A DNA stretch of 64,000 nt, from the IMG/VR virus record IMGVR_UViG_2721755655_000008; one strand, given 5' to 3'. Below, in pieces: positions 45,001 to 48,000 of this stretch; the stretch's first letter is position 1; each line of letters begins with the position of its first letter. Made by a program: the position numbers. Source of the DNA: a virus. Its lineage: Duplodnaviria; Heunggongvirae; Uroviricota; Caudoviricetes.

Positions 45001-48000
45001 AACGGGCCAGGAAGGTCTTTAAAATTAAAACCTATTTCATCATGCAGAGGGAATATCTGTAAAAAATAATTACCTGATGTAGGATGAATATCTGGTTTTA
45101 CAATGTTTAGCTGGACACCATATTTACCAGAGATGCCTGAAACGGAACTAGGTATCTCTAATGCCATTTGGGTAACATTGAATAAACCAAACATATCCAA
45201 TGTTTTTTTTCCTATGGATCCTTCTTCAAGGTGAGGAGCTATATATTCGTCTAGCCCTGAGAGCAGACCTTTATCTTTTATCAAGCTCAGTAGAGCTGTT
45301 GTTTCACCGCATTCCGGTGCATGTTGCTGTATATCATCTGGAATATTAACAACAAATCCAGCTTGGCATCCTAGAGGTAATTCGGATTGCGGTATTTGTG
45401 TAGAGGGTATTTGTTCTGTTTGATGATGTTGATTGTTTTGTGAGGTGATTCCAGATTGTATGGTCGGTTGAATGTTCATAATAAATCCTTATTACATGTT
45501 TATATCCATTAATAATATCAATCCATTGATACTATTAGTGTCACATATCCGATGTGGACAGCTTTAATATATAACTGTTTGAATGCTTGATTGATGTGAC
45601 TTAGATCTCAAAATTAAGTTGTTAAATTTACCAGTTTATCGCTTGAACACTTAAAATAAATTATAAATGTTTCTGTTATTGTTTTTTATAGTTTAAATTA
45701 TTGTTGGTTGTATAAGCTGATTACATTTTTACTCTAAGTGTTATAAATATTTTATACTGATATTAGTCTTATTATATATTTTTTTAATGAAAATGAGCAT
45801 AAAACTAAGACATATAATGCTTGGCAGCTTTATGCTCTTCTGATTGGCTGTATGTTTGATGACAAAAAATTAGCGCAAGAGGACAAAAAATCACCTTGCG
45901 CTAATGCTCTGTCTCAGGTCACTAATCACATCTAACTCATTGATTAATTGTGACTCTAAATGTAGTGTTTTGTCGCGTTTTGCAGTCTATCATTTAATCA
46001 ATTGTATAAATAACATAATGATTTTTAATGTGTTTTTGTGATTTTATCCTCCTTCTGACATGGAAGTTGTTCGTTCAAAAATCTTATTAAATATCAAGTT
46101 GTTAAATCTGGTAAGTCATTATTGGTCAAAATAAAATCATTATCCGATTTCAATTTTGTCCCACTCCCGCCCGCGACTGTCCCTATAATGCGCCGCCATT
46201 GAATCAGATTTATGTCCAAGAAGACGTTGTGCAAACTTGTAGCCAATCTGGTTCCGATATAGCCTCGCGGACAGACTACGTAGTTCATGAAATGTCGGTG
46301 GGTCTCCATCAAACGAGATCCCGGATGCATTTCGCGCCTTTGTTAAATACCGTGATACTGTGGCTGGAGAAAGTGGTTCGTGATAGGTTGATGCGATTAT
46401 TGTTTCACTGCTGCTGGCCTCCCTGCATTTCTGTAGTGTATCAACCAGTGAGATGTCGAGTGCGTCAATGGTTAGAGCCAGCGGAATGGCAATTTTGGCT
46501 CCTGTTTTACTCTGTCCAATGTGAAGATGACCATCGTTTATGTCTGACCACTTCATTCTGCACAAATCGCCCACTCTCTGCCCTGTAACGACAGCTAAAT
46601 CCATTGACAGCCTCAGCCAGATGGGGAGGTGCTCAGCAGCATGGTAAATAGCGACATACTCATTAGCTGTCAGCCTTGAGCGCCTTACTTCTGACTTTGC
46701 TGCACGGGTTGTTGTTACTGGATTCGTTGCCACATGCCCCTCGGCTATTGCCCCTCGAAAAACGTCAACAAGGGTTGACCTGATTACTCTTGCGGAAACC
46801 GCTTTACCTTCTGCGACGTAGGTGTTTAGCATTGCTGCCACCTCTTTCGTTGATATGTCAGTGAGCGGTTTGTCCGGCAATTTTCTTCGAATTGCCCTGA
46901 TTTTGCTGGCGTAGTCGAGTAATGTTTTCGGCTTGCTCCCCCTCTAGCTGAGGATTGTTTCATATCGATCAAGCCACGTATGAAGAGTGATTGAGTCAGT
47001 GCCTTTAACCCTGTCCAGCAATGATTCGTGCCCACTTTCGCTGAAAAGCTCAATGTTGGTGTGAATGCTTCTGAAATTGCTACTCTTCTGTCTCTTCCCA
47101 GCCCGAACTCTTTTTTCGTCCTCGGGTCAGTGTGTAGTAAGACCGCTGCAAATCCTGCGTGCTGACGGGAAGTGGGAAAATATTGGCGAAATGAAGTAAC
47201 CCGATAGCTTCACAAAAACCGGAGTCCGGCTCCGGTTTTTGTTGTCATGTATGGGGGATGTCTGTTAGGAATAATTAGATAGGTTTATTTTGAAGGTTGA
47301 AATGTATGTTATCGCCCTCTTCTATAAATTTGGGATGTTCATGGAATTCTTTAACCAGAAACCTGACTTCGCCTGATAATCGTGTTTTATCCTCTGTAAG
47401 GGATGCTGCTGTTCACTCTGATAGCGGGACGCAAGTAACGGTTGGCAACAGAACATATCGTGTTGTGGTCACTGATAATAAGTTTTGCGTTACAAGAGAA
47501 AGTCATAGTGGTTGTTTTACTAATCTGTTGCACAGGTTGGGATGGCCTAAGGGAGAGATTAGCAGAAAAATTGAGGCTATGCTGAATACATCGCCAGTGA
47601 GCACGACTATAGAAAGAGGCTCTGTTCATTCGAACAGACCTGATTTACCTCCAGTGGATTATGCGCAGCCGGAGTTACCTCCAGCGGATTATACTCAATC
47701 AGAGTTGCCGAGGGTTAGCAACAATAAATCACCCGTGCCAGGTAATGTTATTGGTAAAGGTGGTAATGCTGTCGTGTATGAAGATATGGAAGATACAACA
47801 AAAGTGTTGAAGATGTTTACTATATCTCAAAGCCATGAAGAGGTGACAAGCGAAGTTCGTTGTTTCAATCAGTATTATGGTTCCGGGAGTGCAGAGAAAA
47901 TATATAATGATAATGGAAATGTTATTGGTATTAGAATGAATAAAATAAATGGGGAATCTCTTTTGGATATTCCATCATTACCAGCACAAGCTGAACAGGC

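Follow-up and report, generated by a model that had tools for sequence, protein, structure and literature searches.

Two sib/tI homologues in the effector locus of the Escherichia coli O157:H7 ompW prophage, probable relics of lambda-family integration modules

The window, i.e., the whole 64-kb stretch of DNA analysed here, is 100% identical to the corresponding region of E. coli O157:H7 EDL933 and of other genomes and is the effector-gene end of the defective ompW prophage of E. coli O157:H7 (CP-933P/Sp9, "PPompW"). The RefSeq annotation of EDL933 gives the order nleA, integrase pseudogene, tail-fibre fragment, nleH1-2, nleF, IS256 remnant and ISEc8, with ompW' located farther on. The effector gene nleA occupies 44154–45479 on the minus strand. 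It is part of an nleG'-nleA-sib-attP-int' block that is flanked on both sides by a direct repeat of 140 bp on the plus strand, the two copies of which (43056–43194 and 47128–47267) share 92% identity. The left copy comprises the 3' end of a tail-fibre gene together with its terminator hairpin, and the right copy adjoins the truncated 5' end of the integrase pseudogene int'. Farther to the right, the remnant of a transposase of the IS256 family (Mutator) lies at 48899–49533 on the minus strand, and ISEc8, a member of the IS66 family with the terminal repeats GTAAGCGTACAGC, extends over 49781–52222 on the minus strand without target-site duplication. The two copies of the repeated element described in the following lie next to int' (copy 1) and between the two IS-derived sequences (copy 2), and neither has a RefSeq feature annotated under it.

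A repeat search of the window resulted in one repeat family with two copies of 142 nt, at 45855–45996 and 49534–49675, which show 77% identity. An earlier note had claimed a repeated element of ~100 bp at 45858–45960 and 49545–49650; this element is real, and both of these intervals fall inside the copies as delimited here. In a blastn comparison of the window against itself the pair scores E=3e-26, and no third copy was found within the window. Both copies align to the lambda genome from position 27529 on, i.e., to the sib/tI hairpin and the P arm of attP. The lambda sib-attP region matches copy 1 over 45855–46168 (E=5e-47) and copy 2 over 49534–49748 (E=8e-51). Moreover, a 50-nt stretch homologous to the element is annotated as 'sib transcription processing site' in the phage HK022 record X51962, so that the sib/tI-like character proposed earlier for the element is borne out. 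Four-way alignments with lambda, HK022 and phage Gally are also consistent with homology of the copies. Both copies contain the arm-type Int site P1 (CAGGTCACTAAT) without any change, and 1–2 changes occur in the P2 region. In all loci inspected, the element has an att arm or core as its neighbour and is located at a prophage or phage integration module. With high confidence we therefore regard the two copies as the outermost part of an integration module of the lambda family (sib/tI plus P arm), copy 1 belonging to an attP and copy 2 to a displaced attR, and both being relics. The kind of element, sib/tI and lambda att sites, is already well known and does not represent a new kind of system; what it contributes concerns the annotation and the history of the locus.

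In copy 1, the sib/tI structure covers 45859–45917 on the minus strand. Its arms, TTAGCGCAAG (45870–45879) and CTTGCGCTAA (45895–45904), form an exact 10-bp inverted repeat, and a lower-stem extension pairs 45861–45869 with 45905–45915. The corresponding structure in copy 2 is degenerate (49538–49596, minus strand), with the arms TTAGTGCAAG (49549–49558) and CTTGCGCTAA (49574–49583), in which a C-to-T change at 49553 leads to a C.A mismatch. The perfect 10-bp inverted repeat that had been ascribed to both copies is thus present in copy 1, and in copy 2 it is one base off. The T-run described after the hairpin on the minus strand is found in both copies as six U residues, at 45864–45869 in copy 1 and at 49543–49548 in copy 2 (A6 on the plus strand). 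Folding predictions yield −19.1 kcal/mol (z −6.7) for the terminated form of copy 1, which is followed by the U6 run, and −28.7 kcal/mol (z −7.5; 9+12+3 pairs) for its read-through form. For copy 2, the predicted values are −13.9 kcal/mol (z −4.5) for the terminated form, again with U6, and −14.7 kcal/mol (z −2.2) for the read-through form, and for the hairpin of prophage CP-933K, the arms and loop of which are identical to those of lambda, −19.3 kcal/mol is predicted for comparison. The number of predicted lower-stem pairs is nine in copy 1, six in lambda and four in copy 2. The hairpin of copy 2 has begun to decay. A consensus terminator scan allows loops of up to 8 nt and for this reason listed neither hairpin; their absence from it is not evidence against them.

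In lambda, sib/tI (~27,535–27,585) is the retroregulator of int, in which an RNase III site and the intrinsic terminator tI overlap. Leftward int transcripts starting at pI end at the hairpin with its U6 run (tI) and are stable. The N-antiterminated transcripts from pL pass tI, the lower stem then forms and RNase III cuts the longer duplex (sib), upon which the int mRNA decays from its 3' end, which constitutes retroregulation. Integration shifts sib to attR and thereby away from int. Details of the tI and RNase III mechanism are reportedly those of Guarneros et al. from 1982 and Schmeissner et al. from 1984. The copies in the window match lambda sib/tI in the arms (10/10 and 10/10 in copy 1, 9/10 and 10/10 in copy 2), in the U6 and lower-stem sequences, with full identity in copy 1, and in the location of the element directly outside the P1 arm-type site on the sense strand of int. 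They differ from it in that the loop of copy 1 carries one substitution and one extra A, a variant that also occurs in intact phages, and in that copy 1 has only an int pseudogene in cis and copy 2 no int at all. Neither xis nor pI and pL were found next to int', and no xis was found upstream. As no live int is present in cis, retroregulation has no target here, and the two copies are homologues of sib/tI and not working retroregulators. The sequence of copy 1 that extends from GAC-A6 up to the P1 site is the same as in the intact phage Gally, and its arms are identical to those of lambda and HK022. With an intact hairpin of the same sequence as in working phages, copy 1 should retain the ability to stop leftward transcripts, which would then probably end ~380 nt upstream of nleA, the next minus-strand gene downstream of this terminator, whose start codon lies ~380 nt past the U-run. 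For either copy, we infer RNase III cleavage and termination from sequence identity and the predicted folds.

The sequence beyond the hairpin of copy 1 follows the layout hairpin-P1-P2-core-P'-int'. The repeat itself (45855–45996) contains the sib/tI hairpin and the outer P arm with P1 at 45915–45926 and the P2 region at ~45942–45961, both of which were assigned by transferring the lambda binding features 'int 1' and 'int 2' through the alignment. The remainder of the attP (45997–46139), delimited by alignment to the attP sites of lambda, HK022 and Gally, consists of the inner P arm, the core region ending at 46066 (...CTCCTTCTGACATGGAAG) and the P' arm at 46067–46139, which includes the P' block GGTCAAAATAAAATCATTAT. 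It is directly followed by int' (46140–47134, minus strand), a pseudogene of a lambda-family integrase. This arrangement agrees with the position claimed for copy 1 in the earlier note, across the att region from int. int' corresponds to Int residues 26–355 and, by tblastn, is 82% identical to the Int of Gally and 67% identical to that of lambda, with a Pfam Phage_integrase match of 1.9e-38. It lacks residues 1–25, is frameshifted near residue 50, contains an in-frame stop where residue 89 would be, and is called a pseudogene by RefSeq; its truncated 5' end adjoins the tail-fibre fragment. In O111:H8, an nleA-sib-P-core sequence as in the window joins chromosomal yfaT/yfaS DNA exactly after the nucleotide corresponding to window position 46066. 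Judged from this sequence junction, the O111:H8 site is a true attR at yfaT, which makes it a real att site and copy 1 of the window its attP form. Copy 1 is thus the sib/tI of a complete, unrecombined attP (P-core-P') from a yfaT-integrating phage type. Its closest full-length relatives are the sib-attP-int regions of HK022 and Gally (X51962, OV696608) with 79–81% identity from sib through int. They differ in the core, which reads ATCCTTTAGGTGAATAAG in these phages and ...CTCCTTCTGACATGGAAG in the window, and yfaT, as O111:H8 shows, is the integration site of the window type, which does not use that of HK022.

Copy 2 shows a different layout, hairpin-P1-P2-core-B', as expected at an attR. The repeat and the remaining P arm (49534–49729, P1 at 49594–49605) have 80.6% identity to lambda 27529–27742. 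They are followed by a lambda-type common core, GGCTTTTTATACTAA (49730–49744), which equals GCTTTTTTATACTAA minus one T of the T-run and has an intact overlap region TTTATAC. The adjacent ~34 nt are host DNA from the ybhB side of lambda attB, a B' flank (49745–49780) that consists of TTTGAGCGAAAC, an 8-nt gap and AAAAAGATAAAAAGTTGTTTTT, stops at the terminal repeat of ISEc8 and was assigned by alignment to the attB of K-12 and to the attR sites of NCTC11121, of the lambda-bio phage DN1 and of CP-933K. When copy 2 was used as query, it was matched through nt 245 by genomes that carry a prophage in the native bio locus and by the lambda-bio transducing phage DN1, and only to nt 215 by true phage attP sites. 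As copy 2 runs via the lambda-type core into the ybhB-side host flank, it represents an attR junction. The native attR of CP-933K in EDL933 has the same layout as copy 2; its nleH region is highly similar and its sib-P-core-B' stretch homologous to that of the window. The order sib-P arm-core-B' flank is shared by copy 2, CP-933K/Sp3, other attR sites between ybhC and ybhB (bio) and lambda-bio DN1, and, as in CP-933K, an nleH paralogue and an IS256 fragment precede the element. In contrast to the bio-locus attR sites, copy 2 sits in the ompW prophage, its host flank is limited to ~34 nt with the 8-nt gap and truncated by ISEc8, and it carries the stem mismatch and a shorter T-run in the core. 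Past ISEc8 the B' flank does not resume; a second IS256-family fragment is found there without target duplication. The B' variant with exactly this 8-nt gap was not found at the native locus in any species-representative genome searched. Sequence comparison identifies copy 2 as a displaced attR, cut off by ISEc8, that stems from a CP-933K/Sp3-like prophage of the bio locus. The earlier suggestion that copy 2 marks another eroded prophage end is thereby supported, the end being bounded by the IS256-family remnant, which adjoins it ~10 nt past the U-run, and by ISEc8. A tandem lysogen, in which both att sites would originate from one Int-mediated double insertion, was rejected because the cores of the two copies differ.

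A scan of IMG/VR, anchored on the P1 site only so that the choice of hairpins was unbiased, collected 129 instances of the hairpin, in which the A6 run is invariant and the arms are perfect in 117 of the 129. Sequence differences occur only in the loop and in the left flanks, which are unrelated, and the arm variant of copy 2 is the only recurrent stem mutant. A covariation test over these P1-anchored instances revealed no compensatory changes; because the stems are invariant across relatives, this gives no signal for or against the structure. In the Salmonella phage SI8 the hairpin is identical, although the remainder of the P arm has diverged. Among complete E. coli genomes, 2067 of 5426 contain the element, at 1–6 places per genome.

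A repeated and palindromic sequence, one copy of which lies between IS remnants, might also be a dispersed host repeat (REP/BIME, MITE or IS end) or a chance inverted repeat without any tie to phage integration, and membership in a known IS or REP family had been named in advance as the finding that would speak against a sib/tI-like element. Such an origin is refuted by the alignments to the phage sib-att region and we regard it as practically out of the question. In lambda, HK022, Gally and SI8 the homology extends for 200–300 nt into the att arms, core and int, a chance inverted repeat is excluded by E-values between 1e-26 and 1e-51, and an att arm or core accompanies the element wherever it was inspected. 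Both copies lie outside all annotated IS features and are unlike the flanking IS256 and ISEc8 sequences. An Rfam scan of 43000–52000 at E<=1 resulted in zero matches, which reflects that no curated family covers sib; the copies belong to no IS-end or host palindromic repeat family. Similarly, it appears very improbable that the copies act as secondary attachment sites at which resident lambda-family integrases insert additional phages (prophage-in-prophage integration) or cause chromosome rearrangement. It was shown that PPompW effector loci carry functional host-derived attB sites (attB-in-PP_1/2/3), at which incoming phages integrate (Nakamura et al., 2021; PMC8112680), the P-core-P' of copy 1 is complete and its att type has been used at yfaT in O111:H8. 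However, the two copies are not attB sites, copy 1 being an attP and copy 2 being an attR, the cognate int of copy 1 is dead, the core of copy 2 is one T short and its B' flank breaks off at ISEc8, and the main text of the PPompW study reports integration only at yecE-, ykgJ/ecpE- and ompW-derived sites (Nakamura et al., 2021; PMC8112680).

A co-option of the two hairpins as terminators is easier to envisage but still unlikely. Copy 1 would have been retained for keeping leftward read-through away from nleA and from the H-NS/Ler-type region upstream of it, and copy 2 would block outward transcription from ISEc8, both being functional parts of the locus and not fossils. The hairpin of copy 1 is perfect, lies on the strand of nleA at the distance given above and is better conserved than the adjacent dead int, and phage BP-4795 and O111:H8 share the order nleA-upstream region-sib, conserved at 96% identity, despite different sequence past the P arm. 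This conservation is, however, also expected if nleA joined the edge of the module in an ancestral phage that then spread recently. Recent spread and retained function could each account for the finding that copy 1 is perfectly conserved in STEC lineages. Moreover, the minus strand upstream has no conspicuously strong promoter-like site, and the stem mismatch argues against selection on copy 2. As no live int remains to be regulated in cis, both copies are best read as relics, or fossils, of stacked prophage ends.

The final arrangement suggests how the locus may have been assembled. The phage from which copy 1 derives would have entered the ompW prophage whole by homologous recombination in the tail-fibre gene, and a deletion from the 5' end of int to the 3' end of the tail-fibre gene would then have followed, leaving tail fibre-nleG'-nleA-sib-attP-int' between the 140-bp direct repeats. 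Copy 2, the right end of a CP-933K/Sp3-like prophage of the bio locus (nleH-cargo-sib-attR), would have moved in either by inter-prophage recombination or by an aberrant excision similar to that of lambda-bio, and was clipped by IS elements. We infer both the two-step history of copy 1 and the transfer of copy 2 from this arrangement. On a more general level, the chances seem even that the effector locus arose from complete right ends of other lambdoid phages or prophages stacked on one another, with the nleG'-nleA-sib-attP-int' block entering via tail-fibre homology and nleH-nleF-sib-attR plus host flank originating from a bio-locus prophage. If true, stacking would be a concrete route by which host-derived att sequences enter prophages, a question left open by Nakamura et al. 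(2021), and sib hairpins would serve as landmarks for counting such events. The recognition of the two copies itself fits and slightly extends the published picture, in which type III effector genes accumulate by prophage-in-prophage events. The window elements and the PPompW attB sites have in common the prophage, the effector locus and the presence of chromosomal att-flanking DNA inside a defective prophage; they differ in that one window element is an attP and the other an attR, both of lambda-family integrases, and neither is described in the main text of that study, where ybhB, ybhC and sib are not mentioned (PMC8112680). Recognition of the two copies divides the PPompW effector locus of O157:H7 into at least two captured prophage ends and adds to its annotation a yfaT-type attP with a dead int and an attR junction with ybhB-side host DNA inside another prophage.

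The element of 142 nt is present in exactly two copies in the window according to a repeat search, i.e., copy 1 at 45855-45996 and copy 2 at 49534-49675, which are 77% identical (E=3e-26 by blastn within the window, which returned no third copy), confirming the repeated element described in an earlier note. A 10-bp inverted repeat had been assigned to both copies. It is perfect in copy 1 (TTAGCGCAAG, 45870-45879; CTTGCGCTAA, 45895-45904), while the arms of copy 2 (TTAGTGCAAG, 49549-49558; CTTGCGCTAA, 49574-49583) carry one mismatch that had been overlooked. The T-run proposed on the minus strand is found in each copy as six U directly after the hairpin. 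For the terminated form, i.e., the minus-strand RNA stopping at the U-run, folds of -19.1 kcal/mol (z -6.7) and -13.9 kcal/mol (z -4.5) are predicted for copy 1 and copy 2, respectively, next to -19.3 kcal/mol for the reference hairpin of prophage CP-933K, which has the arms and loop of lambda. For the read-through form (RNA length 64-66 nt) the predicted values are -28.7 kcal/mol with a 9-pair lower stem for copy 1, -14.7 kcal/mol with a 4-pair lower stem for copy 2 and -24.3 kcal/mol with a 6-pair lower stem for lambda as reference.

Both copies match lambda from position ~27,529 on, which corresponds to the sib/tI hairpin, the retroregulator of int, and the adjoining P arm of attP. A lambda sib-attP query aligned to 45855-46168 (74%, E=5e-47) and to 49534-49748 (81%, E=8e-51), and in four-way alignments with lambda, HK022 and Gally both copies retain the hairpin with its U-run as well as the arm-type P1 site CAGGTCACTAAT and the P2 region. 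In HK022 (GenBank X51962) the homologous 50 nt carry the label 'sib transcription processing site', with 'attP site' and int coming immediately after. The alignments and this label support the sib/tI-like reading suggested earlier, and elements of this kind have been described before; Rfam contains no family for it.

A scan of IMG/VR anchored on the P1 site only resulted in 129 instances with 26 distinct hairpin-to-P1 strings. All of these share the same A6 run, and the hairpin arms are perfect in 117; variation is limited to the loop (11 variants), and the invariant stems offer no compensatory changes to count. The variant of copy 2 is the only recurrent arm mutant (10 instances, all with an IS256 left flank). 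From 3-6 nt past the A-run on, the instances diverge into at least seven unrelated left flanks, showing that the hairpin forms the outer edge of a conserved integration module. In the P22-like Salmonella phage SI8 the hairpin is identical, whereas the remaining P arm has diverged. Of 5426 complete E. coli genomes, 2067 carry the element, at one to six places each (three in each of the O157:H7 genomes listed), and believable hosts among species representatives are Escherichia, Shigella, Citrobacter and Cedecea. The exact lambda hairpin was also encountered in a scan of genome contigs in unrelated assemblies (Shewanella, Pseudomonas, Tardiphaga, Enterococcus, Paenibacillus and others), several of these matches lying on contigs of ~48.4-48.5 kb or of a few hundred bases, with a coverage of ~1x where the contig name gives it (e.g., Shewanella); these are almost certainly contaminating lambda control DNA and not native prophages.

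Many E. coli O157:H7 chromosomes, EDL933 among them, contain the region 44000-52000 with 100% identity. The EDL933 annotation assigns it to the right end of CP-933P/Sp9 ('PPompW'), a lambdoid prophage in ompW. In EDL933, tail genes, J, lom and tail fibres are followed by a DUF1076 (nleG-type) pseudogene (nleG'), nleA (44154-45479, minus strand), an unannotated gap with copy 1 in it, the integrase pseudogene int' (46140-47134, minus strand), a C-terminal tail-fibre fragment (47128-47199), nleH1-2 and nleF, an IS256-family remnant (48899-49533), a further unannotated gap holding copy 2, and finally ISEc8, nleG, espM1 and the truncated ompW. Within nleH1-2, a tandem 30-nt repeat (47639-47698, 80% identical) encodes a doubled ten-residue motif, of which nleH1-1 of CP-933K has a single unit (30-nt alignment gap).

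To the right of copy 1, alignment to lambda, HK022 and Gally revealed the inner P arm, a distinct core, the P' arm (GGTCAAAATAAAATCATTAT) and the 3' end of int in line, in agreement with the proposed placement like lambda sib/tI, across the att region from int. The core differs from that of lambda and from that of HK022/Gally. It is real, because in E. coli O111:H8 TW05614 the same nleA-sib-P arm extends up to CTCCTTCTGACATGGAAG (46049-46066 of the window) and then switches to chromosomal DNA, i.e., a DUF1175/yfaT 3' fragment followed by an alpha-2-macroglobulin gene, a junction that represents a true attR. At this switch point the window runs on into P' and int', which makes copy 1 the attP form, and the arrangement identifies it as the sib/tI of a complete, unrecombined attP. 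The adjacent int' is a dead integrase: it is 82% identical to Gally Int and 67% to lambda Int across residues 26/29-355, lacks the first 25 residues, and has a frameshift near residue 50 and a stop where residue 89 would lie, with the remaining ORF matching Pfam Phage_integrase (1.9e-38). In the Stx1 phage BP-4795, 55593-55841 is 96% identical to 45700-45948 of the window, covering the nleA upstream region, sib and the outer P arm. This similarity ends at ~45948 inside the P arm, with a different gene (putative avirulence protein) beyond, indicating that the nleA cassette travels with a partial sib-P arm and that a recombination breakpoint lies within the arm.

The block nleG'-nleA-sib-attP-int' is bracketed by a direct repeat of 140 bp (43056-43194 and 47128-47267, 92% identical), both units comprising a tail-fibre gene 3' end and a perfect terminator hairpin (AAAAACCGGAGTCCGGCTCCGGTTTTT); the truncated int' 5' end abuts the right unit. 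The repeat resembles what a homologous insertion with a later internal deletion would leave behind. A circular yfaT-type phage might have recombined into the resident prophage via tail-fibre homology, and a deletion might then have removed all DNA between the 5' end of int and the 3' end of the second tail-fibre gene. We infer this two-step series to be the simplest history for copy 1.

Past the P arm of copy 2, GGCTTTTTATACTAA (49730-49744) equals the lambda common core minus one T and is followed by TTTGAGCGAAAC...AAAAAGATAAAAAGTTGTTTTT, which except for an 8-nt gap is the ybhB side of K-12 attB (CTTGAGCGAAACGGGAAGGTAAAAAGACAAAAAGTTGTTTTT). The similarity of copy 2 to true phage attP sites (lambda, HK106, HK629/630) ends at nt 215, i.e., at the core, whereas it extends to nt 245 in chromosomes with native bio-locus prophages (e.g., NCTC11121, beside ybhB-bioA) and in DN1, a lambda-bio transducing phage annotated with 'attR site'. 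The attR of CP-933K at ybhB in the same O157:H7 genome has the same layout and is preceded by nleH1-1, in a region highly similar to that of nleH1-2 in the window, and an IS256 fragment. These matches support the reading of copy 2 as the sib/tI of a displaced attR, bearing out the suggestion of another eroded prophage end. By this likeness, the ompW prophage now contains, at 47128-49780, a paralogue of a CP-933K-like right end together with the prophage-chromosome junction. The host-side flank B' stops at the terminal repeat of ISEc8 (49781-52222; matching terminal repeats, GTAAGCGTACAGC from 49781). ISEc8 lacks an 8-bp target duplication (GTTTTTCG to one side and CTGATGTC to the other) and lies between two diverged transposase fragments of the IS256/Mutator family that have opposite orientations (48899-49533 and 52223-52563), which argues that an IS-mediated rearrangement took the rest of B'. 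The right-hand fragment is not annotated as transposase by RefSeq. The B' variant with the 8-nt gap is absent from all species-representative genomes searched. The GenBank record of DN1 lists an 'antisense RNA' on the plus strand (1344-1505), ending about where the sib homology starts.

In lambda, int transcripts from pI stop at tI and are stable, whereas N-modified pL transcripts pass tI and form a longer duplex; once RNase III has cut this duplex, degradation of the RNA proceeds back into int. Integration parts sib (attR) from int (attL), so that Int can be made from pL upon induction. This mechanism was reportedly worked out by Schindler and Echols in 1981, a study cited in PMC5300877, and by Guarneros et al. 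in 1982 and Schmeissner et al. in 1984. The window retains the RNA elements and lacks the retroregulation system: int' is a pseudogene with no xis, pI or pL found beside it, and copy 2 is without any int. Both copies are therefore read as fossils, whose regulatory role has almost certainly been lost. The hairpin of copy 1 is identical to that of working phages, and copy 1 should still halt leftward transcripts ~380 nt before the nleA start codon. The C.A mismatch and the weaker predicted fold of copy 2 fit relaxed constraint.

The same prophage family was analyzed by Nakamura et al. (2021; PMC8112680), who described host-derived attB sites from yecE, ykgJ/ecpE and ompW in the PPompW effector locus, which are used by incoming phages. 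The entry route of host att DNA into prophages was left open and inter-prophage recombination was suggested; ybhB, ybhC, bioA and sib are not mentioned in the main text (PMC8112680). The attR of copy 2 with its flank adds a further case of chromosomal att-flanking DNA in PPompW, in which a whole junction was carried over, a modest addition to the annotation of the effector locus and the reconstruction of its assembly. Moreover, the CP-933K right-end locus of EDL933 contains a YkgJ-family gene fragment between nleC and nleH1-1 (21537-21650 of the locus), which probably corresponds to attB-in-PP_2, the site derived from ykgJ/ecpE in Nakamura et al. (2021); in that case the CP-933K effector locus would hold captured host att DNA as well.
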